A stretch of DNA of 64,000 nucleotides, taken from IMG/VR virus record IMGVR_UViG_3300017766_004544, positions 18,230 through 82,229 of that record, one strand, 5' to 3'. Both the position numbers and the translations under genes were made by a program. Under the pieces are notes generated by a model. That model had not been told where the DNA came from. It made no database searches and worked only from the letters and a program-made list of their open reading frames with translations. Below, piece after piece: positions 8,617-34,033 of the stretch. Position 1 is the first letter of the stretch, and every line of letters starts with the position of its first letter. Source of the stretch: a virus. Lineage: Duplodnaviria; Caudoviricetes.

Positions 8617-9001
8617 GGCCTTCTCCGTGACGGAACCAGGTTTCAGCTGCGGAAGCGGCGAAAGAGGGCTGCAGCCATGCCTCTATTTTCGCGGCCCTGC
8701 GCTCACAATAGAAATCTTGTTGAACGTACCAGGCGCGCCAGTCCCTGGCACTACCTTTGGCCGCGTTACAAGCCCGGCAGGCAGCGACCAGATTGGAGCG
8801 CAAGCTGCTGCCACCGAAGGCCCTGGGCTTGACGTGATCCAGGGTCATCGTCAACGGCCGGCCGTCTTGGCCAGCGCTATGGCCGCAGTAGGCACAGCCG
8901 CCCCATTCGTCCTTGATGGCCTGACGGAAGCGCCGCCTGGCCCCACTGGGCGATAGATCGATGAGGCTGAACACATAGTCATCCCAGTGTTCTGGCGTCA
9001 T
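8408..9001 (-). CDS. HNH endonuclease
   Basis: CAYCG...TLDHVKPRAFGGSSLRSNLVAACRACNAAKG; 3' 209 nt overlap nblA in another frame. Confidence 0.85.
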   Translation of the reverse strand: MTPEHWDDYVFSLIDLSPSGARRRFRQAIKDEWGGCAYCGHSAGQDGRPLTMTLDHVKPRAFGGSSLRSNLVAACRACNAAKGSARDWRAWYVQQDFYCERRAAKIEAWLQPSFAASAAETWFRHGEGHGGHGADLGAEVPAAPGRDRGQGHEQGRTRRSFVHFLGGAIQAQADLHCEQPGSWVHVLPGGETSMAAA

Positions 9002-9134
9002 CCGCCGTCTTCGGTTGAGGCAACGCTAGGCAGCAGCCACAGTGCGCAAAATGAGTGCCGCCTCGAACCTTTCTAGGATGCCGGCTTGCGATACGGCTGA
9101 CAGGGCGTACACTGACGCCGTCTCCGCTGGGACG

Positions 9135-9410
9135 ATGACCGAAGAGGCCCGCCTGCTACTGGATCGCATGGATCAGCTCGAGTCCAAACTCGAGACGATC
9201 CTGGAGTCGCTCGGCTGTCGTGAGACCGAGCAGTGGATCGACCGCAAAAACGCCTGCCGCCTGCTGGGCATCAGCGACAGCCACCTGCTCACCCTGATTG
9301 CCAAGGGCACCATCAAGGGCGACTCGATCCGCAATGTCGGTACCGCCAAGAAGGCGCGCTACCGCTTCCACCGGGTCAAGCTGCTGAATCAATACCTGGC
9401 TCGCGCTTGA
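9135..9410 (+). CDS. Excisionase-like helix-turn-helix protein
   Basis: WIDRKNACRLLGISDSHLLTLIAKG (Xis/MerR-type HTH); converges on the integrase with a 35-nt overlap. Confidence 0.6.
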   Translation: MTEEARLLLDRMDQLESKLETILESLGCRETEQWIDRKNACRLLGISDSHLLTLIAKGTIKGDSIRNVGTAKKARYRFHRVKLLNQYLARA

Positions 9411-10509
9411 ACTTATGGCCGATGCGCTCGCGCAGCGCAGCCATGTGCCGCCGGTCGATCCAGTGCCGGTAGGTGTTGTTGTGAATCTCAACAGAGTGGC
9501 CCATCAGCCGCGCACCCACGTCGGAGCTGATGCCGTACTTCAGCAAGCGGATCGCATAGGCGTGGCGCGCCGCATAGAGCGGCATGGCAATGCCCTGGTC
9601 CCGCAGGTAATCGTTACAGGCCCGTGACACCTTGAGCTTGTCCTGGCTGGGGCGGTGCATGTGATGCAGCCCCAGCTCCTCGATCCACTCCTCCGGGCAG
9701 GCCCAGACCTGCCGGTTGCCGGTCTTGGTCTCGTGGGGCACCTCCAGCACGCCGTCGGCCCCCAGGGTGCAGCCAATGATCTCGTGGGGGCGGATGCCAA
9801 AGGCCATGACGATCCCGAACATCCAGCGCCAGTGCGGCAGGCGGAGGCGGCCCCAGAACTCCAGCAGCTCCTCATCACTCGGAATCACCCGCACCTGCAG
9901 TTCGGCGCGGCTGTAGCCAGCCGCCGCCTGGGCAATCGCCTCGCGGTCGACCGGCAGGTCCAGCAAGGCAAGCGCTTGACTAAAGACCGAGCCGGTGGAC
10001 TTGCGCGAGCTCGGCGATTCGACCTGCAGCAGCGCGGCCACCAGGCGCTCCTGGTCGCAGGGCCCGCGCATGTCCCGCAGCAGGGCGATCGCCGGCTTGT
10101 ACTTCTTGCCCCAGATCGTCGCCCAGCTCTTTTCGACCTCGGGGTACTTGCGATCGAACAGGGCCTCGATCGCCTCGCAGAACTGCGGCATGGTCACCGT
10201 GGCGGCGGCGTCCTCGCCCCGCAGCCGCGCCGCTAGGCCCTCGCCCTCCCAGTCCCCCCAGTGGAAGCGCCCCTCCAGCAGCTGCTCCTCCAGCTCGAAG
10301 GCCGCTGCCGCTGCGGTCTTGAGCTGCTCGGGGCTGGCCTCTAGGCCCAGGGCGATACGGGCCTGGCGGCGCTTGCCTGGGTCGTTCTGGTCCGGCAGCG
10401 TGCCCCGCAGATAGAGGCGGTTGCCGATCTGGGCGATGCTGCAGCGCTGGAGCTGGGCGTTCTTGCGCCGCAGCTGCGGTGCCAGGTTGAAGGCAGGGAC
10501 TGGGGCCAT
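9376..10509 (-). CDS. int: Tyrosine integrase with N-terminal arm-type domain
   Basis: GIRPHEI (R), TKTG (K), YAARHAY (R), MGHS (H), HNNTY (Y); N-terminal NRLYLRGTLP typical of cyanobacterial tRNA-linked integrases. Confidence 0.9.
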   Translation of the reverse strand: MAPVPAFNLAPQLRRKNAQLQRCSIAQIGNRLYLRGTLPDQNDPGKRRQARIALGLEASPEQLKTAAAAAFELEEQLLEGRFHWGDWEGEGLAARLRGEDAAATVTMPQFCEAIEALFDRKYPEVEKSWATIWGKKYKPAIALLRDMRGPCDQERLVAALLQVESPSSRKSTGSVFSQALALLDLPVDREAIAQAAAGYSRAELQVRVIPSDEELLEFWGRLRLPHWRWMFGIVMAFGIRPHEIIGCTLGADGVLEVPHETKTGNRQVWACPEEWIEELGLHHMHRPSQDKLKVSRACNDYLRDQGIAMPLYAARHAYAIRLLKYGISSDVGARLMGHSVEIHNNTYRHWIDRRHMAALRERIGHKFKREPGIDSAA

Positions 10510-10522
10510 GGCGGCGGGGGCG

Positions 10523-10542
10523 CTTGCCTTAATTCTTGCCTA
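10523..10542. repeat. Arm-type site candidates (CTTGCCTT, CTTGCCTA)
   Basis: Two direct copies at 10523 and 10535, just upstream of the int start. Confidence 0.7.
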
Positions 10543-10586
10543 AACGCCCCCAGACGGCATTGATTCGAACTCGTTCCGACTCGCAC

Positions 10587-10615
10587 AAAAAAAGCCGCCT
10601 CGGGGAGAAGCGGCT
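10587..10615 (-). terminator. Intrinsic terminator downstream of the tRNA 3' fragment
   Basis: Minus strand AGCCGCTTC-TCCCC-GAGGCGGCT followed by a T run. Confidence 0.75.
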
Positions 10616-10646
10616 CAGGGACTGGGTTTTTACCGGTGGAACTGAA

Positions 10647-10693
10647 TCGGAGCGACAGGATTTGAACCTGCGACCCCCACTACCCCAAAGTGG
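10647..10693 (-). mobile_element. attP-like core: 3' half of tRNA-Pro(GGG)
   Basis: Minus strand CCACT-TTGGGGT-AGTGG anticodon arm, GCAGG-TTCAAAT-CCTGT T arm, CGCTCCG-A acceptor strand; no D arm or 5' acceptor strand upstream. Confidence 0.9.
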
Positions 10694-10737
10694 CTCGTCG
10701 TCGTTGAGACCCGTTGCTATGACTAGGGAGCAAGGGA

Positions 10738-10779
10738 CTTGCCTAGCGGCTCTTGCCTAGTGACTTGCCTAATGCCTAG
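10738..10779. repeat. Arm-type site candidates (CTTGCCTA x3 + ATGCCTAG)
   Basis: Direct copies at 10738, 10752, 10764 and a degenerate copy at 10772. Confidence 0.75.
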
Positions 10780-10801
10780 GGCTGGCCACTTCCTGACCCG
10801 C

Positions 10802-11026
10802 TCAGCGCTCCTCGGCCCCCAGCCCCTCGCGCAGGATTGGCCTCAGCGTCTCGGCGATGGGGAAGTGGCGCAGCAGGGCCCGCGCCTCCTTCCTGACCTC
10901 CCCAGGGACCCGCTTGGTCGCCTGCGGGTCGCTGAGCCGCAAGAGAAAGTCCCGCGTCGCCACCACAGCGGCAACCTGCTGCAGGGGGCTACTGATCGGG
11001 ACGGTCAAGCGGTAGCGGTCGCTCAC
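10802..11026 (-). CDS. Small protein resembling the BPSL0761 family
   Basis: AVVATRDFLLRL...RVPGEVRKEARALLRHFP. Confidence 0.55.
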   Translation of the reverse strand: MSDRYRLTVPISSPLQQVAAVVATRDFLLRLSDPQATKRVPGEVRKEARALLRHFPIAETLRPILREGLGAEER

Positions 11027-11391
11027 GCGGGTGTGGCCACGTCAATCGCGGCTCCGACCAGCGCATCGGCGAGACCCTTGATCTCGGTCTCGTGCCACCC
11101 GGCGGTCAGCGAGGCCAGCACCGCCTCACCCACCAGGTAGCAGTAGTCCTGGAAGAGGCCGGTGTAGGTGTTCGCCAGCGGATGCTCGGGGTTGTCCCGT
11201 TCGTCGGCGTAGTACAGGAACTCGAGGAAGTCGGCTCGGTTCTGGTCCTGGCGGACCTGCCCAGTGGGGGCAGTCCCTTGGGCCCTGCAGGCTTCAGTCA
11301 ACGGATTGCAAGACATGGCATCGCCAAGGTAGCGACCCCTTTCAATAAGGGCAGCCATGGCCTTCATTTCGAGGACTGGTTGGCAGCCCAC
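11023..11391 (-). CDS. Hypothetical protein
   Basis: Coupled by 4-nt overlap to 10802..11026. Confidence 0.5.
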   Translation of the reverse strand: MGCQPVLEMKAMAALIERGRYLGDAMSCNPLTEACRAQGTAPTGQVRQDQNRADFLEFLYYADERDNPEHPLANTYTGLFQDYCYLVGEAVLASLTAGWHETEIKGLADALVGAAIDVATPA

Positions 11392-11450
11392 GCCTGCTGT
11401 GCCGCGCGGACTGCCCGCTGTGGCTCATAATGGGGCGCCGATCCGGCCCT

Positions 11451-12293
11451 ATGAGCACCCTGCTCGCGGCCTGGGAGCAGTTCCGCGCCGAGCGAGCAAC
11501 CTCCCTGTGCCCCACCAGCCTCACCAGTGACTACGTCGTGGTCGACAAGTGGCTGCGGCGCTGCCCGCTCCAGGACCTCCACCAGTCCCGGCTGGTCATG
11601 GGCTGGGTCCTGAGCCAGTCTCCGCCCAAGTCGGCCAGGCGGGTGGCGATGTACCTCAAGTCCCTATGCCGCTGGGCGGCCAGCGAAGACATCGCCCTAC
11701 TGGAGCGCAACCCGCTCACCAGCTACCGCATGCCCAAGCCGCCCCAGGGCGAGGAAGAGGTAGTGGTGATCCCGCGCCACAAGACAGCGCTGGTGCTGAT
11801 CGCCCTGGAGCGCGACGTCATGCCCAACTGGTCCCTGTACGCCGAGTGGATGCTGCAGACCGCTATGCGCACCGGCGAGGTCCGGGCCCTGCGCTGGCGC
11901 GACATCAAGGATGACCGCATCCTGGTGCACCAGAACTTCACCTTGACCCACGGCCTTAAGACCAGCACCAAGACAAACCGACAGCGCTGGGTTCCGCTCA
12001 ATGAGCGCTGCCAGGCGATCCTGGCGCAGCTGGACACGGCTGGCGACTACCTCTTCCCGTGGAACCGCCAGGCCTTCCAGAGCATCTTCTACGACCGCAT
12101 GCGACGAGCGCAGCAGGCGGGCCTCATCGAGCGGCGGTATCGCCCCTACGACCTGCGCCACACTGCCATCTCCCGCTGGATCGAGGCGGGGATTCCCGTG
12201 GCCCAGGTGGCGGCCTGGGCTGGCAACTCGGCGGAAGTGATCTGGAAGCACTACGCCGGTGTCAGCCAGGACTACGCCATGCCGGTTCTCTAA
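11451..12293 (+). CDS. Second tyrosine recombinase (short, no obvious arm domain)
   Basis: AMRTGEV (R), TKT (K), YDLRH (R), WAGNS, KHY (Y); about 280 aa. Confidence 0.85.
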   Translation: MSTLLAAWEQFRAERATSLCPTSLTSDYVVVDKWLRRCPLQDLHQSRLVMGWVLSQSPPKSARRVAMYLKSLCRWAASEDIALLERNPLTSYRMPKPPQGEEEVVVIPRHKTALVLIALERDVMPNWSLYAEWMLQTAMRTGEVRALRWRDIKDDRILVHQNFTLTHGLKTSTKTNRQRWVPLNERCQAILAQLDTAGDYLFPWNRQAFQSIFYDRMRRAQQAGLIERRYRPYDLRHTAISRWIEAGIPVAQVAAWAGNSAEVIWKHYAGVSQDYAMPVL

Positions 12294-12466
12294 GAAGGCC
12301 GACATCTCAAAGTGCGCTCATGCCAGCCGCAGAGAGCGCCGGCACCGCTGGCGGCACTGCGCTCCGGACTATGAGCGCCTGTCCAATCCTGCCCCTCTAA
12401 GGCAGAGCGGGCTGTCCGTACTGCTGGCCTCCACCTCAAGCCCCATTCACCCCCTGGGGACCTGGC

Positions 12467-13051
12467 CTAGGGGACGTCGCTTTGCTCGCCCTCCAGATCG
12501 CTCAGATTGGCGGCGAGCTGAGGCTCGTCACTCACATCGCCCGACACGGGCTCCGGGGTGACGGGCTCGGGCGGCACGGGCGCAGGCAGGCGCGGATCGG
12601 GCGGCCAGCTGCTGTACTCGGGGCTGGTGACGAACGCTGCCAATTCCTCTGTCGTGGCAGTGGTGACGATGCCAGAAATCTTGAGCTCCGAGGCCAGTCG
12701 CAGGTCTTCCCGCCAGCCCTTGATCTCGGGGTCAACAGAGACACCGTTGTCCTGCTCGCGAATCACCATCCAGTCGGTGGGAGTGATCAGGGTGCCGGCA
12801 GTTGTACGGGTCTGCTGAGTCCACTGCTCGACGAGCTGGCTGTGGTCCTTGGGAATCAGGTTGCCGTCCGCGTCGTAGCCCCAGTAAAACCGCTGGTCAT
12901 ACGGCTGAGGATCTGGAACCTCGGTAATGCCGATGGCTTCGCGCTCTTCGGGGGTCGATAAGCGCAAAAAGTTGGCCGGGTACTGCACACCCGTCTGCGG
13001 ATCCGTGAAGGCCACGTCCGGGCTGAGTGACTTTCCGTCGAGGATGAACAT
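12467..13051 (-). CDS. Tail fibre-associated / assembly protein
   Basis: Directly downstream of the large fibre gene; QYPANFLRLSTPEEREAIGITE...DQRFYW...TDWMVIR. Confidence 0.6.
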   Translation of the reverse strand: MFILDGKSLSPDVAFTDPQTGVQYPANFLRLSTPEEREAIGITEVPDPQPYDQRFYWGYDADGNLIPKDHSQLVEQWTQQTRTTAGTLITPTDWMVIREQDNGVSVDPEIKGWREDLRLASELKISGIVTTATTEELAAFVTSPEYSSWPPDPRLPAPVPPEPVTPEPVSGDVSDEPQLAANLSDLEGEQSDVP

Positions 13052-13213
13052 GGCGATCAGGTCCGTAGTTCTAGGTTAGCTTCGGCGGCCTATAAGCGAA
13101 GGTGACTAAAAGGTTTGATGGCCTGAACGTGAGACGCCTCATAAGGACGAAGCAGGGGTTCAGGCTCTGTCATTAGAGTGTAGGTCCTGTGAGCCCAGAG
13201 GACTTGTTCACTA

Positions 13214-16200
13214 CTAGCGGGCGCGGTTGTTGGCGGCAAAGGGCGATTCGGCCCAAGCAAAACCGACATATGTGCCACTACTTGCGTTGGAATCGTTGTA
13301 TGCGTTTCTGATTTTGAAACCGTTACTTAAAAAATCCCAACCAAGGCCAGACTGAGCTGCTTCAGCATCACTTGTGTTGGCATACAAATAAGTATTGTTC
13401 AAGTTGTAAGCCCCACGAGCGGCATCTACTAATAGCCAGTTGCCGGTTGCGTCAGTGCGTTTAATTAGCAATAGCTTGGGGCGGAAAGATAATGCAACAA
13501 ATGGTCCGTCTGAGCTAGATCCATTTCCGGTGAAGGAAAACGCAGAAGAGTACCCGTCTAATGGCGCCCAGCAATACGCCACCAGAAGATTTGAAGACCC
13601 GTTTGATCCGGATTGCGTTCCAACAGAAAATACAGTTGAGGAAGGTGCAGTACCATTCCACATTGTGGATACACTGTCTGCCCCATCCGTTGCATTAAGA
13701 CGTAGGCGAAGATTGGCGTTGCCCAATGCTTGATGGTAGACCTGCCAGTTATCGGCGCTACTGCTGCGGTTTTTGACAATCAGCATTGATGGCGCAACGC
13801 CAAGCCCATGCCCAACCGTGGCGTTGGCTCCAGTTCCCGTGTACGTGACCACCGAGAACCCCGCACTCGGGTTAGCCCGCACCTGAGAAGCGATGGAGCC
13901 TTGCGTGTTCGTGACTGTTGTATTCCCGGCGTCCCAGGCCCAGGCGGCGTAAGACCCAGAGCTGGCGTTAAATCCAGCATCTGCATCTAGGCTGAAGCCA
14001 TCTGAGTTGAAAGAGGTGATGCAATCTGTCTCGGTAATCTCTGCGCTGGTCTGATCCGATGAAAGCAACTTGGTGTTGCCACGAACCGTGTCCGTTAGCC
14101 AATGACTGCGGGCGGCAGATCTCTGCTTAACCCACACCAGATCCGGCGAGAACCCCAGCCCTGAAATCGTCTGCGAACTGCCATTACCAGTCCAGAGCTT
14201 CACATCGAACAGGTCACTAGGCTTTGTGACTACTGGGGCCGGGAGGTTAGCCGTACAGAGCGCCTTGAAGCCCGCTGGTGCTTGATACGCCCAACTGCGT
14301 TGGCCCCAGTTCGAGTTAAGAGTGCAACTAACTATCGTGGCAAAAGGCCAGAACGTGCCAGTCAAACCAGACACAGCTGGGTTGGCGCCTGTGACAGGGT
14401 TGCCACTGTTTTGCCAGGTGCCGTTCTTTGAGAAATAAAGCTTACCGTTATCACCGTCATACGCGATTCCAATCACGTCTCCCGTTGTGTATGTAGCTCC
14501 ATAAGCCGAGTTGCTAGAGTCAGTGTAAACATTGCCGTCTACACTGTAATAACCACGGCGGTTAGCATCAGAAGCGGCTTGAGATGGATTATTTGAAATG
14601 CCAATTACTGCCCCACTGCCGATAGACGCAACAGTGTGCTCCCAGTAGTATTTGCCGGAGCTGACGCCTATGGTTCCGTAAATGCGGTAAACACTAGCAT
14701 TTGAAGTATCAAGATTTCCATTAGATACAACGCCGGTACTGCCTGCGATGGGGTTCCAGGTGCAGTAGTTTCCTCGAACTTGATTCCCGAGCCCAGAATC
14801 TACCTCGCTGCCATTAGTGGGAACGTCTAGTAAAGAGTCATTTTCCTTCGTGCTTTGACTGTTGTTGCTAAGTGTCGCGCCAGCCACCCAGGAGCCAGAC
14901 GGGCTTGCAAGCACAAAGCTGTTCGAGCCAGCATCCTTGGAGTAAACAATGCCAGACCCGCTCGACGCTCCACTAGCCAACACGGAGTCCCCAAGGCGCA
15001 ACTCGGATACGAACCCTGACGGAGTGGTGGTCGTTATGTTCCTCAGCCCTGCTCCACTTACCAAGATGTAGCCGTCAATCTCGATAGCGGCGGGCCAATA
15101 GAGATCGGGAGACCAGCTATCAGAGGAGTTCTTGACCGTGAAGGCTGTGATAGATGTAATGGCCTCGCCCGGCGTCATCAGGCTAGAGTAGTCAACCCAC
15201 GACCAGCCACTGCCAACGGTTGGCTTCTTGCCATTCACTTCGGTGTACATCCTATACGTCGTCCCTCCGGCAGCCGCGTTCCAGGCATTGATACAAAATA
15301 TGCGGAGCGATTTGTTGAAGGTCAGTCCAGGTGGGAACCATGTGCAGTAATAGGTTCCGCCGTTGTAGGTATAGTTTGATACATACGGTCGTGCATCAGT
15401 GCTGCCGGCAAAGGTGGCTGCCGGGAATGAGTTTGTGTATAGGTAAGAGCTGTATGTACCCGTGCTCTGATATGTAGGCTGAGAGCTGGTGCTAGTAGCC
15501 GATATGGTTCCCGAGTAGCCGATGTACGTTGAGATGTTGTTCGGCGTCCAGTTGTTGGCCGGGGAGTTGCCACTAGTGTCCTTCCCTAATGCCGCTGCGG
15601 TTGCTGCACTGTTGTCCGCGAAATCGAGGTGCCAGCCTTGCGAGCCGTAGCTGCCGGTGTACGCCTTGGGCACCCACACGCCGGTGGTCGCGGAGAACTC
15701 GCCGAAGCTGGTGGGGTCTAGGGCTTGGCCGTCGATGAAGTGGATGTCGGCGAGGTAGCCGTTGAGGTATGCGGAAGGTGTAGTGGCCGCCCCAATTCCA
15801 TGTAGTGCCGCTTGGTTTATCCCTAGATCGGCGTTTTGGCTGGGGTTTGCGGAGGTGGAAAATGCAGTTATCTGAGAACCATTGACGTACAGCTTTATTC
15901 TGTTTGCTGCAGTCGCTTGAGTTGTATCAAGCGCCAGCACTATGTGCATCCACGCAGAGCAATCCCTGAATACGGCGCTAGTGGTGAACCAAGTTGTTAC
16001 CGGACCCGAAAACTCTAACGTGTTGGTACTCTTTAAGTAGAAGATAGAAAATTGGCTGTCTGACGAAACTGGGCGGCAATCAAGAAGCGCCTGATCTGTT
16101 CCAAGCCCGCTCCGCTTCACCCACCCCGCCCAGGTCCACGTCTTGCGGTTGCCGGCTGATGCGGGGGTGTGGCTGAGAAAACTGCTGTCGGCTGCGTTGA

Positions 16201-16282
16201 AGCGGAGGGAACGTGAGATGCTGTATCCGCCAGCGCCAGCAGCATCGGCGGCCAGTAGTAGGTTGCTGTTGATCATGCTCAT
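13214..16282 (-). CDS. Large tail fibre / receptor-binding protein with ConA-like lectin and SPRY-like domains
   Basis: 1022 aa, S/T/G/N-rich beta motifs (KTWTWAGWVKRS, WMHIVLA, SGKYYWE, GDVIGIAYD, PDLVWVKQRS). Confidence 0.75.
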   Translation of the reverse strand: MSMINSNLLLAADAAGAGGYSISRSLRFNAADSSFLSHTPASAGNRKTWTWAGWVKRSGLGTDQALLDCRPVSSDSQFSIFYLKSTNTLEFSGPVTTWFTTSAVFRDCSAWMHIVLALDTTQATAANRIKLYVNGSQITAFSTSANPSQNADLGINQAALHGIGAATTPSAYLNGYLADIHFIDGQALDPTSFGEFSATTGVWVPKAYTGSYGSQGWHLDFADNSAATAAALGKDTSGNSPANNWTPNNISTYIGYSGTISATSTSSQPTYQSTGTYSSYLYTNSFPAATFAGSTDARPYVSNYTYNGGTYYCTWFPPGLTFNKSLRIFCINAWNAAAGGTTYRMYTEVNGKKPTVGSGWSWVDYSSLMTPGEAITSITAFTVKNSSDSWSPDLYWPAAIEIDGYILVSGAGLRNITTTTPSGFVSELRLGDSVLASGASSGSGIVYSKDAGSNSFVLASPSGSWVAGATLSNNSQSTKENDSLLDVPTNGSEVDSGLGNQVRGNYCTWNPIAGSTGVVSNGNLDTSNASVYRIYGTIGVSSGKYYWEHTVASIGSGAVIGISNNPSQAASDANRRGYYSVDGNVYTDSSNSAYGATYTTGDVIGIAYDGDNGKLYFSKNGTWQNSGNPVTGANPAVSGLTGTFWPFATIVSCTLNSNWGQRSWAYQAPAGFKALCTANLPAPVVTKPSDLFDVKLWTGNGSSQTISGLGFSPDLVWVKQRSAARSHWLTDTVRGNTKLLSSDQTSAEITETDCITSFNSDGFSLDADAGFNASSGSYAAWAWDAGNTTVTNTQGSIASQVRANPSAGFSVVTYTGTGANATVGHGLGVAPSMLIVKNRSSSADNWQVYHQALGNANLRLRLNATDGADSVSTMWNGTAPSSTVFSVGTQSGSNGSSNLLVAYCWAPLDGYSSAFSFTGNGSSSDGPFVALSFRPKLLLIKRTDATGNWLLVDAARGAYNLNNTYLYANTSDAEAAQSGLGWDFLSNGFKIRNAYNDSNASSGTYVGFAWAESPFAANNRAR

Positions 16283-16665
16283 TTCACGTCCAAGACAAGG
16301 CGAGCTGTGATGCGCGTGGCGGATTCGACGTAGTAGACCAGGGCGTCCGTGCCGCTAGCCGTTGCGGTCGGCGCCGTGCCCCCGGGGAACTTCCAGTAGC
16401 TCCCGTACGCCAGGGTGTAGGCGCCGCCATTGGTGATCATGATGGTGCCCGATTGTCCCGCCGTGATATTGGAGGGGTTGGCCAGAGTGCCGTTAGCTGA
16501 CAGGCTCAACGAATAGTTGTTCCCGGAAGCAAAATTCAGCGTGATTGTGCCACTGACGCTGCCTTGCGCCACGATCGTCCCCCGCTGGGCGGCACTAAAG
16601 CTCTGCGCTGTGCCAAGAGCGGCGTAGCCACTCAGGTCAGGAGATGGAACAAAGAACAGTGACAT
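16279..16665 (-). CDS. Small tail fibre-related protein
   Basis: Homologous to the C-terminus of 17918..18808 (AAQRG...NP..GQSG...YG.YWKF...D.LVYYV). Confidence 0.65.
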   Translation of the reverse strand: MSLFFVPSPDLSGYAALGTAQSFSAAQRGTIVAQGSVSGTITLNFASGNNYSLSLSANGTLANPSNITAGQSGTIMITNGGAYTLAYGSYWKFPGGTAPTATASGTDALVYYVESATRITARLVLDVK

Positions 16666-33034: not shown

Positions 33035-34033
33035 TCAGCCTTCAGATACCAGCACCTTGCTGCGCAGAGCCTCGGGAGTGGCTTGGCTCAGCATCTGCCA
33101 GGCGGCCGCAGGGTTGCGCTCGCTCAGGGCAGAGAAGGTGGCCCAGAAGTCATCGCCACCGCCATTGCTGGCCTGCACGTCAGGAGCGGGCATCTCCATC
33201 TGAGGGCGCTGATAGGTCGCAGGGGCGGGAGCGAAGCGGCGCTCATTGGCGGCGACTTCGGCGGCCAGGCGATCCTGGGGCAGCTCGGTGGGGTAGGGGC
33301 CCTGAGGACCGAAGAACTCGTTGACGTACTCAGCGAGGATCTCGGGGTTGGTCAGCAGCGTGTGATACGCCGCATTGTCCTCAGCCGCAGCCTCGATCAC
33401 GGTGTGCGAGTTCTGCAGTTGACCGTGGATGGTCTGCAGTTGGCTCAGCGCCTGGGCAGTCTGCTGGGCCTGGGCGAGCAGGGCATCCTCGACCACGCAG
33501 GCGTAGCGATTCAGCAGGGCAGGGGCTTCAGCACCGAAGTGCTGCAGAACCTCAAGACTTTCGCTGCTGACGCTTTGCAGATACTCGTCGCTCGCGGCTG
33601 CGCTCGGCGCGCTGCTGTAGCTCGGAGCCTGTGCCGGAATCGCCTGGGAATAGGCCGCTGTTTGTGGGTACGCTGAGGTCAGCGGCGCCGTAACGGAGGG
33701 AGCCGCCTGGTAGCTCACCGGTGCCTGCAGGTAAGCCGCCTGGGAAGGGGCTGCCTGTTGGGTCGGAGCCGAGGAGTACCCCTGGGACTGGGATTGAGGC
33801 GTCGCGCTCAAGCTGGCGAGCAGCCCCTGGTACGCCGCCTGCCAGGGATTCGCCTGGGGCACCGAAACCGGAGCTTCCGGGGAGTAAGCCGGAGCTTGCG
33901 GTTGCGCCGTCGGGTACGAAGCTGGGGCCGCCTGCTGGATCGATGGGGAGGCCACGGTCGGCGCGGCCACGCTGGATGGGATCGAGGGCTGCGGGGTCGC
34001 TACTGCCGTCGCCATCGCTGTACTGTCCTGCAT
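33035..34033 (-). CDS. Putative capsid scaffolding protein
   Basis: Follows the portal; P/A/S/Q-rich disordered N-half and helical C-half. Confidence 0.6.
   Translation of the reverse strand: MQDSTAMATAVATPQPSIPSSVAAPTVASPSIQQAAPASYPTAQPQAPAYSPEAPVSVPQANPWQAAYQGLLASLSATPQSQSQGYSSAPTQQAAPSQAAYLQAPVSYQAAPSVTAPLTSAYPQTAAYSQAIPAQAPSYSSAPSAAASDEYLQSVSSESLEVLQHFGAEAPALLNRYACVVEDALLAQAQQTAQALSQLQTIHGQLQNSHTVIEAAAEDNAAYHTLLTNPEILAEYVNEFFGPQGPYPTELPQDRLAAEVAANERRFAPAPATYQRPQMEMPAPDVQASNGGGDDFWATFSALSERNPAAAWQMLSQATPEALRSKVLVSEG

Follow-up and report, generated by a model that had tools for sequence, protein, structure and literature searches.

The region 10523-10778 of the DNA analysed here is very probably an attP that is used by the lambda-type integrase Int1 encoded next to it; it belongs to a phage of freshwater picocyanobacteria whose 82-kb genome is complete and unintegrated. 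The window, i.e. the whole stretch of 64 kb that was analysed, corresponds to bases 18230-82229 of an IMG/VR record of 82,229 bp. In brief, the site combines the 3' part of a tRNA-Pro(GGG) gene with direct repeats on both sides and an intrinsic terminator. This reading draws on the anatomy of the site, its non-randomness, an exact match to host genes, the predicted fold of the integrase and the products of natural integration by related elements. The features are, in the order of the window:

9135-9410, plus strand: candidate Xis/RDF, a gene for an HTH protein; the reading frame opens at 9042, with a probable ATG start at 9135
9376-10509, minus strand: int1, encoding Int1 (P0001), a 377-aa tyrosine integrase of the heterobivalent type, assigned here to the attP
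10523-10542, plus strand: P' arm, two direct repeats, CTTGCCTT (10523-10530) and CTTGCCTA (10535-10542)
10564-10583, plus strand: tandem 10-mers, TTCGAACTCG / TTCCGACTCG, between the terminator and the P' arm
10585-10616, minus strand: intrinsic terminator, a 10-bp stem with a 5-nt loop (10616-10592) and a T run to about 10585
10647-10693, minus strand: attP core, nt 28-74 of tRNA-Pro(GGG), which run from the anticodon stem to A73 and match host genes in all 47 bp
10678-10692, minus strand: inferred crossover region, the anticodon stem-loop CACT-TTGGGGT-AGTG, 15 bp
10682-10688, minus strand: probable overlap, the 7-nt anticodon loop, flanked by the stem halves, which would act as core-type inverted repeats
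10738-10778, plus strand: P arm, three exact copies of CTTGCCTA (10738, 10752 and 10764; spacing 14 and 12 bp) and a partial copy at 10771-10778
11430-12293, plus strand: int2, encoding Int2, a 287-aa integrase and the only clear PF00589 match near the site, 650 bp from the P arm

The phage, the tRNA core and the terminator

The record has direct terminal repeats and a CheckV completeness of 100%, and describes a tailed phage with a G+C content of about 62%. The window codes for TerL, a portal-like protein, an endolysin, a tail fibre, a spanin and an SLT-domain protein. Phage genes flank the site, with spanin, SLT and HNH genes to the left and tail fibre, portal and TerL genes to the right. 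ARAGORN found no tRNA gene in the window and none in the remaining 18 kb of the record, thus the tRNA-Pro copy is a fragment. The 15-mer of the anticodon arm occurs a single time in the whole record. Since the phage is complete, ends in terminal repeats and has one core but no tRNA gene, the attP is in its unintegrated form. The first-pass annotation had taken the site for the unintegrated form, and these observations, together with the phage genes on both sides, bear this out.

The phage recurs, since a near-identical integrase (99%) is encoded on 5 contigs of up to 80.8 kb; an integrase with 84% identity to Int1 is found on others. In related phages, the integration module occupies different genome neighbourhoods. 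Two further reading frames, orf74 and orf122 (10802-11391), look coding, and a family search with them found none. We did not find a sigma-70 consensus promoter in the region 8900-11600.

Read in the tRNA sense (minus strand, 10693-10647), the core is CCACT-TTGGGGT-AGTGG-GGGTC-GCAGG-TTCAAAT-CCTGT-CGCTCCG-A. This comprises, in order, the anticodon arm (GGG), the variable loop, the T arm, the 3' acceptor strand and the discriminator. The exact 47-mer is present in 85 genome contigs, nearly all from cyanobacteria. Freshwater Cyanobium, Synechococcus and Vulcanococcus account for most of them; the others include Leptolyngbya and Acaryochloris, among further cyanobacteria. With few exceptions among 80 host loci, the 47-mer is the 3' end of a 74-nt gene that ARAGORN calls as tRNA-Pro(ggg). 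The core had earlier been recognised as tRNA-Pro(GGG) from the anticodon arm to the discriminator, and its 47/47 identity to host genes agrees with that. The further claim that the core identifies the host site was right in that the site can be named, but the 47-mer resolves the host to cyanobacteria only. Flank similarity and G+C content point to Cyanobium or freshwater Synechococcus as the host clade.

The terminator lies about 30 nt downstream of the tRNA fragment and upstream of int1, and its fold has a z of -2.7. The 66 nt past the tRNA end are identical in 64/66 positions to the element-borne terminator at the attL of a related element in the metagenome-assembled genome (MAG) SRR6231161_bin.94 (L032). 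They are identical in 50-53/66 positions to the native terminators at three empty sites of the UW140-type clade (L068, L053 and L012); in shuffles, the mean was 34.6 and the maximum 42. By this similarity, the terminator is a homologue of native host tRNA-Pro terminators, and not a phage invention. In bin.94, the native terminator is of a different type and stays at attR, while the terminator of the element follows the functional tRNA. A replacement terminator just 3' of the tRNA end had been proposed in the first-pass annotation; it is present, and bin.94 displays the predicted swap, but the terminator is host-like.

The tandem 10-mers are candidate sites for an accessory protein, which may be Xis or a host factor. 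Relatives carry a different tandem pair in the same place, e.g. CCGGTCGATT/CCGGTCGGTT in L032.

Integrated relatives, the crossover and lysogeny

Related elements are found integrated, with attL and attR junctions as well as empty attB sites. We found such pairs in MAG SRR6231161_bin.94 (attL L032, attR L039; empty sites L051 and L056), in a Synechococcus UW140-type MAG (attL L040, attR L021; empty sites L012, L053 and L068) and in the isolate Vulcanococcus limneticus LL (attL L018, attR L075; empty sites L002 and L048). In all three pairs, attL consists of a complete tRNA and an Int1-type gene, and attR is a partial tRNA copy on another contig. In the bin.94 and UW140 pairs, the homology between attR and the empty site resumes 1-2 bp before the 47-bp core. 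A fourth element, in genome G004, has both ends on one 580-kb contig, with the tRNA at C1:226856 and an identical partial copy of 52 bp at C1:251777-251828. This element is 24.9 kb long. Compared with the phage, its integrase is 56% identical, its xis-like gene 62% and its DUF932 gene 72%.

The genome search with the 47-mer, as suggested in the first-pass annotation, thus gave exact tRNA-Pro matches and, for related elements, attL/attR junctions and empty sites. The earlier idea that integration regenerates tRNA-Pro with the terminator of the element is borne out in these relatives by the complete tRNA at attL and by the terminator swap in bin.94.

The element of V. limneticus LL encodes a Prim-Pol/AAA_25 primase-helicase, type I restriction-modification genes and a PIN gene. 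The G004 element encodes CHAT/CHASE2, a sigma-70-like factor, DUF932 and a glycosyltransferase. There were no phage structural genes among the ORFs scanned in these two elements, and from their gene content both look like tycheposon-type islands.

Two types of attP occur with the same integrase family. In the 3'-type, represented by the window and nine relatives, identity with the tRNA runs from nt 28 or 29 to the 3' end. In the 5'-type (L090/L091, L099/L100 and the diverged L095), about 85 bp of host-like upstream sequence is followed by tRNA nt 1-43, after which the sequences diverge. Arm repeats still occur on both sides in the 5'-type, and a homologue of the phage endolysin is located further upstream. 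Both types share a single segment, CACTTTGGGGTAGTG, which is the anticodon stem-loop. As this is their sole overlap, strand exchange is predicted to take place within the anticodon arm. The crossover would most simply span the 7-nt loop, with the stem halves serving as core-type inverted repeats. The identity block of nt 28-74, together with the complete tRNA genes at attL of the relatives, places the system among the tRNA-targeting ones that use the anticodon loop.

That the phage is capable of integration is well supported. Stable lysogeny of the phage itself is not supported. It should be noted that one does not imply the other, because T7-like cyanophages integrate at tRNA-Leu without forming lysogens; S-TIP37 and P-SSP7 integrate by means of int and attP and form no stable lysogens (PMC8776855). 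For a long time, stable lysogens of picocyanobacteria have been hard to find, as have sequenced temperate phages (PMC6157547, PMC8776855, bioRxiv 10.1101/325100).

There is accordingly a real, if lesser, chance that the site is a working integration device without classical lysogeny, and that the phage integrates transiently in an essentially lytic cycle, for which S-TIP37 and P-SSP7 are the precedent (PMC8776855). We did not find a repressor of the Peptidase_S24 type in the phage, and its HTH_3 match, at 13 bits, was sub-threshold. A search with the TerL of the window gave no hits in the five host genomes that carry related integrated elements, i.e. no whole prophage. Scans of metagenome and viral contigs, leaving out the phage's own record, for an attL pattern (host tRNA 5' part, gap, phage P' repeats) and for a P-arm/core pattern gave 0 matches, which is uninformative as the scans had no positive control. 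Neither a repressor or immunity module nor whole prophages in hosts were therefore found, but the absence of recognisable genes is weak evidence, and in uncultured phages the repressor often escapes recognition. With five arm sites, an arm-binding domain and a conserved Xis-like gene, the module is, on the other hand, more elaborate than that of the T7-like cyanophages, which implies regulated and directional integration and excision; the related elements, moreover, persist integrated in genomes.

The arm-type repeats and the recombinase

The reading of the region as an attP used by Int1 gains further from the repeats around the core. There are only 4 exact copies of CTTGCCTA in the 64 kb, at 10535, 10738, 10752 and 10764, all on the plus strand. 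A copy with one mismatch begins at 10523, and the partial copy AATGCCTA at 10771-10778 overlaps the third right copy. Six direct repeats, two to the left and four to the right, had been counted in the first-pass annotation; the two on the left stand, whereas the right side has three full copies and a partial one. Only two 8-mers of the whole window attain 4 copies within 260 bp, one of them at another place, and this clustering was seen in 0/60 random 64-kb sequences of a Markov-1 model. The repeats thus stand on both sides of the core and are unlike it in sequence. In the tRNA sense, those of the P' arm read TAGGCAAG / TAAGGCAAG, and they lie 13 bp from the start codon (ATG) of int1.

Each element has a private repeat motif, located just before the int start codon and again upstream of the core or at attR. 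In the tRNA sense, this is TAGGCAAG in the window and the UW140 element, AGTACACGCC in bin.94 and GGTCCACC in V. limneticus LL. In ten attPs from viral contigs, the offsets of the motif relative to the anticodon arm are about -79/-67(/-53) and +137/+149, regardless of the motif sequence, and in the integrated relatives the attR motif is the same as the attL motif. Because the positions are conserved while the sequence turns over, and because Int1 has a lambda-like N-terminal domain, we read the TAGGCAAG repeats as predicted arm-type sites of Int1. The sequence groups of the N-terminal domain track the arm motifs, but they also track the overall phylogeny, and this covariation is therefore confounded and not independent evidence.

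It is improbable that the CTTGCCTA repeats are instead operator or iteron sites of a regulator of int transcription or of replication. The P' pair does lie in the 5' region of int1, where an operator would be expected. Yet in about ten attPs the same private motif flanks the core at fixed offsets, and in integrated elements it is present at either end; an int operator is not needed at those positions. Int1 has a predicted lambda-like N-terminal domain, and the two roles are compatible.

Int1 matches the PHROG integrase family phrog_1 (E 7.7e-10) and has no Pfam match at E 0.01. Pfam alone would pick the wrong integrase, since it missed Int1 while matching Int2. A profile built from Int1 and 15 relatives matches XerC-like, XerD and Brujita Int chains in the PDB. 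R240, K262, Y312(for H)-x-x-R315, H338 and Y347 are invariant in the 16 relatives. These are the catalytic residues R-K-H-R-H/W-Y of tyrosine recombinases, with the first His being Tyr312.

An AlphaFold (AF2) model of Int1 from the 16-sequence alignment has a pLDDT of 86.5 and contains an arm-binding-like N-terminal domain, a core-binding domain and a catalytic domain. In the N-terminal domain, strands at 23-28, 31-39 and 47-57 and a helix at 60-79 are modelled with a pLDDT of 90-95. The best Foldseek match is full-length lambda Int (1z1g/1z1b), over 362-373 columns. Int1 is thus predicted to have the arm-binding N-terminal domain of the lambda type.

Homologues of Int1 are encoded directly 3' of a complete tRNA-Pro(GGG) at L032, L018, L040, L103 and L162. 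A tblastn search with Int1 against 50,697 phage records gave no match. Relatives in viral contigs were likewise missed by a single-protein scan, and an alignment-based search was needed to find them.

It is also improbable that the site is a relic, a decaying module from an island or prophage that has gone out of use. Degraded integrases of the Int1 family do occur beside tRNA-Pro (fragments at L079, a frameshifted gene at L055), and the differing neighbourhoods of the module among related phages would also fit such an origin. Here, however, int1 is intact, carries all the catalytic residues and has a strong codon-position bias, with the G+C at one codon phase at 0.79-0.95 across 9380-10579. 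The core is identical to the host genes over its full length, the five repeats are intact, and the 99% and 84% identical integrases are encoded on several contigs.

Int2 and the integrase of Synechococcus phage S-LBS1 share 60% identity. Its homologues (53-74% identity) are present in 32 viral contigs, usually between an orf194 homologue and the tail-fibre gene, and we did not find relatives in genome contigs. That the attP serves Int2 and not Int1 is hardly credible, in spite of the clear PF00589 match and the short distance to the P arm: the tRNA-Pro core was found within 2.5 kb of Int2 homologues in 0/32 viral contigs and no Int2 homologue was found beside tRNA-Pro in host loci, 287 aa leave no room for an arm-binding domain at a site that has arm repeats, and the P' repeats abut the start codon of int1, whose homologues are consistently adjacent to the tRNA. 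We therefore assign the attP to Int1. Int2 was also considered as a tail-fibre invertase, and there were no convincing inverted repeats around 10780-16400.

The candidate excisionase gene is convergent with int1 and overlaps its 3' end by 35 bp. The codon-position G+C favours the plus frame at this gene. All database matches are sub-threshold: Pfam HTH_17 at E 0.0014, the PHROG excisionase families at 0.005-0.006 and the NCBIfam 'excise' at 0.0023. Homologues stand beside int in relatives, such as the one in the G004 island and one with 38% identity at L097 (E 3e-23). The two genes converge in the window and G004; in most viral contigs they point in the same direction. The HTH protein is a candidate excision factor.

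Proposed mechanism and known systems

From this evidence we infer where the strands cross, how the arms are bound, autoregulation, the role of the Xis-like protein and activity in this phage. In brief, the core-binding and catalytic domains of Int1 would bind the anticodon stem halves, both in the phage copy and in the host tRNA-Pro(GGG), and strands would be exchanged across the 7-nt loop. The N-terminal domain would bridge to the TAGGCAAG sites, of which the P arm has three and the P' arm two. After integration, attL would consist of the 5' part of the host tRNA joined to the 3' part from the phage, followed by the phage terminator, the P' arm and int1. The tRNA would stay intact and terminated, and the terminator would also shield int1 from read-through from the tRNA. 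The displaced 3' fragment of the host gene and its native terminator would be retained at attR. As the P' sites are so close to the start codon of int1, Int probably represses its own gene. The HTH protein encoded at 9135-9410 may provide the excision function.

The mechanism is the textbook one and nothing is overturned by it. Mycobacteriophage L5 (tRNA-Gly) and HP1 (tRNA-Leu) have heterobivalent integrases with a crossover in the anticodon loop, and the 3' part of the tRNA is regenerated.

As in the lambda Int/attP system, there is a three-domain Int (by its predicted fold), arm repeats on both sides that are distinct from the core, and an int gene beside attP. Also shared with lambda-type tRNA-targeting systems are the inverted-repeat core with a 7-nt centre, a small HTH protein as candidate excisionase-like partner and an element that supplies the 3' part of the tRNA. 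Unlike lambda Int, Int1 has no detectable sequence similarity to it (12-17% in structural alignments) and has Tyr in place of the first His of HxxR. The arm sites of the window, 3 + 2 with a spacing of 12-14 bp, the P' pair that abuts the int start and the host-like terminator also differ from lambda.

The T7-like cyanophages P-SSP7 and S-TIP37 likewise have an integrase and an exact tRNA-derived attP, and for them integration into a picocyanobacterial tRNA was shown experimentally (PMC8776855). Their site is in tRNA-Leu, in the first half of the gene and 39 bp long, and arm repeats or Xis are absent from that report (PMC8776855). The phage of the window, in contrast, is an 82-kb tailed phage with about 62% G+C and freshwater hosts.

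The same arrangement is found in the ORF018R region of Planktothrix phage PaV-LD (HQ683709), where the gene for a 377-aa integrase is accompanied by four GTCTAATC direct repeats, a terminator and then a 3' fragment of tRNA-Pro(GGG) that begins in the anticodon stem. The host of PaV-LD, however, is a filamentous cyanobacterium, and its integrase has no significant BLASTP similarity to Int1; at an E of 0.09 we do not claim that the two belong to a common family. The att site of PaV-LD is unannotated in HQ683709, and we found no description of it in the literature searched; nor did this literature yield a description of the attP family of the window.

A marine lineage of uncultured cyanophages with integrase and NblA, and the relic prophage island of Synechococcus WH8016, resemble the present case in that a cyanophage with integrase and nblA is linked to an island bounded by tRNA-Pro (bioRxiv 10.1101/325100). 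That lineage is marine and has a split DNA polymerase; a search of the text gave no mention of an attP or att site (bioRxiv 10.1101/325100).

The integrated relatives resemble tycheposons, with the recombinase right after the tRNA, a partial tRNA at the far end and defence or replication cargo (bioRxiv 10.1101/2020.12.28.424599; PMC8995045). These relatives fit the class of small islands without full virion genes, whereas the window carries a full tailed-phage genome. The target also differs, being tRNA-Pro(GGG) in freshwater lineages as against Pro(tgg) in the Prochlorococcus list. We speculate, with considerable doubt, that one integrase/arm-site system at tRNA-Pro(GGG) is common to full-size phages and small defence islands of freshwater picocyanobacteria, and that the islands are satellites or exchange partners driven or cross-activated by the phage Int/Xis. 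If true, such cross-activation would be a tycheposon-helper relationship in lakes.

In this record the phage genome is complete, its integration module is specified in full, and the exact host site is given. Natural 5'-type and 3'-type variants narrow the crossover to 15 bp, and natural integration products of the same integrase family are available. Vulcanococcus limneticus LL is in culture and carries such an element, and could be used for work on excision and induction. Orthogonal pairs of integrase, arm code and tRNA-Pro might serve as integration tools for Cyanobium and Synechococcus. As to its origin, the family of this integrase may derive from a near-universal chromosomal paralogue, present in 282/301 Cyanobiaceae genomes.

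Genes beside the attP and their arrangement in relatives

Two small genes and a second recombinase follow the P arm, one of the two repeat-bearing sides of the attP, in the window:

10802-11026, minus strand: small gene with strong coding bias, GC3 0.91
11023-11391, minus strand: small gene with strong coding bias, GC3 0.78
11430-12293, plus strand: Int2, a tyrosine recombinase of 287 aa, 60% identical to the S-LBS1 integrase

Both small genes are read towards the P arm, and a family search gave no family for either. Homologues of the two alongside both Int1, the integrase assigned to the attP, and Int2 were found only in L124 (IMGVR_UViG_3300016665_000872), an 85-kb relative that has the same layout as the window, xis-int1-attP-orf74-orf122-int2. 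The attP-like region of L124 (1608-1918) carries paired arm repeats of the TAGTCCAC / TAGTACAC type. The core of this site is a sequence other than tRNA-Pro, and the window-type architecture has therefore been retargeted to another site.

Int2 homologues usually sit with an orf194 homologue on one side and a tail-fibre gene on the other, as seen in 32 viral contigs. The order in the window is Int2, orf194 and fibre gene, the latter two at 12467-13051 and 13214-16282, both on the minus strand. Neither an att site nor an invertible segment was found for Int2.

The excisionase-like gene of the window (9042-9410) and int converge and overlap, an arrangement shared with the G004 island. In most of the viral-contig relatives (e.g. 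L097, 4099-4443) and in Vulcanococcus limneticus LL, the excisionase-like gene lies downstream of int on the same strand. In effect, one small gene is inverted locally between the two arrangements.

Variants of the attP

Some relatives of Int1 are accompanied by a 5'-type attP, in which the tRNA-Pro 5' half (nt 1-43) takes the place of the 3' half and is preceded by approximately 85 bp of host-like sequence. These sites lie approximately 150-200 bp upstream of the int genes on IMG/VR contigs L090/L091, L095 and L099/L100. Integration of this type would restore tRNA-Pro at attR, with a phage-borne promoter region ahead of the tRNA, the mirror image of the 3'-type with its terminator.

An unannotated attP-like site is also present in Planktothrix phage PaV-LD:

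L088 (from HQ683709), 2380-2560: attP-like site adjoining the ORF018R integrase

There, four direct repeats of GTCTAATC are followed by a terminator and then by a 3' fragment of tRNA-Pro(GGG) beginning in the anticodon stem.

Apart from the arm repeat, a single 8-mer of the window clusters as tightly: GCCGCCTG, with four copies in 226 bp (33702-33927) within the portal-like gene.

Integrated elements and a chromosomal match to the Int1 family

Two elements integrated at tRNA-Pro(GGG) carry cargo that is of defence type plus replication. The element in V. limneticus LL (G001:C41:1-14000) encodes a type I R-M system, a PIN protein and a Prim-Pol/AAA_25 primase-helicase, and that in G004 (C1:226700-252200) encodes CHAT/CHASE2, a sigma-70-like factor, DUF932 and a glycosyltransferase. 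In neither element could a virion gene be recognised.

The Int1-family profile also gives full-length matches (E about 1e-60 to 1e-80 in sampled picocyanobacterial genomes) to a largely single-copy chromosomal gene, found at one locus each in 282 of 301 Cyanobiaceae genomes. One example is:

L164, 1471-2823, minus strand: chromosomal gene matching the Int1-family profile

ARAGORN scans of 24 loci (L163-L186) gave no tRNA beside this gene. In the one locus read, it adjoins a ferrochelatase-like gene, called by eye from the translation. One possibility is that this chromosomal gene encodes a domesticated or housekeeping recombinase, kin to the mobile integrases.

The exact cyanobacterial tRNA-Pro(GGG) 47-mer, the attP core, is present on genome contigs of MAG records (L012, L030, L034, L035, L058, L065 and L103) variously titled Pimelobacter simplex, Chitinophaga pinensis, Bordetella parapertussis, Bifidobacterium breve, Acidovorax caeni and Asaia bogorensis. 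These organism names appear to be wrong. The flanks or tRNA-proximal sequence of several match Cyanobium or Synechococcus loci, and L012 is 95.6% identical over 4.5 kb to L040, a UW140-type attL.
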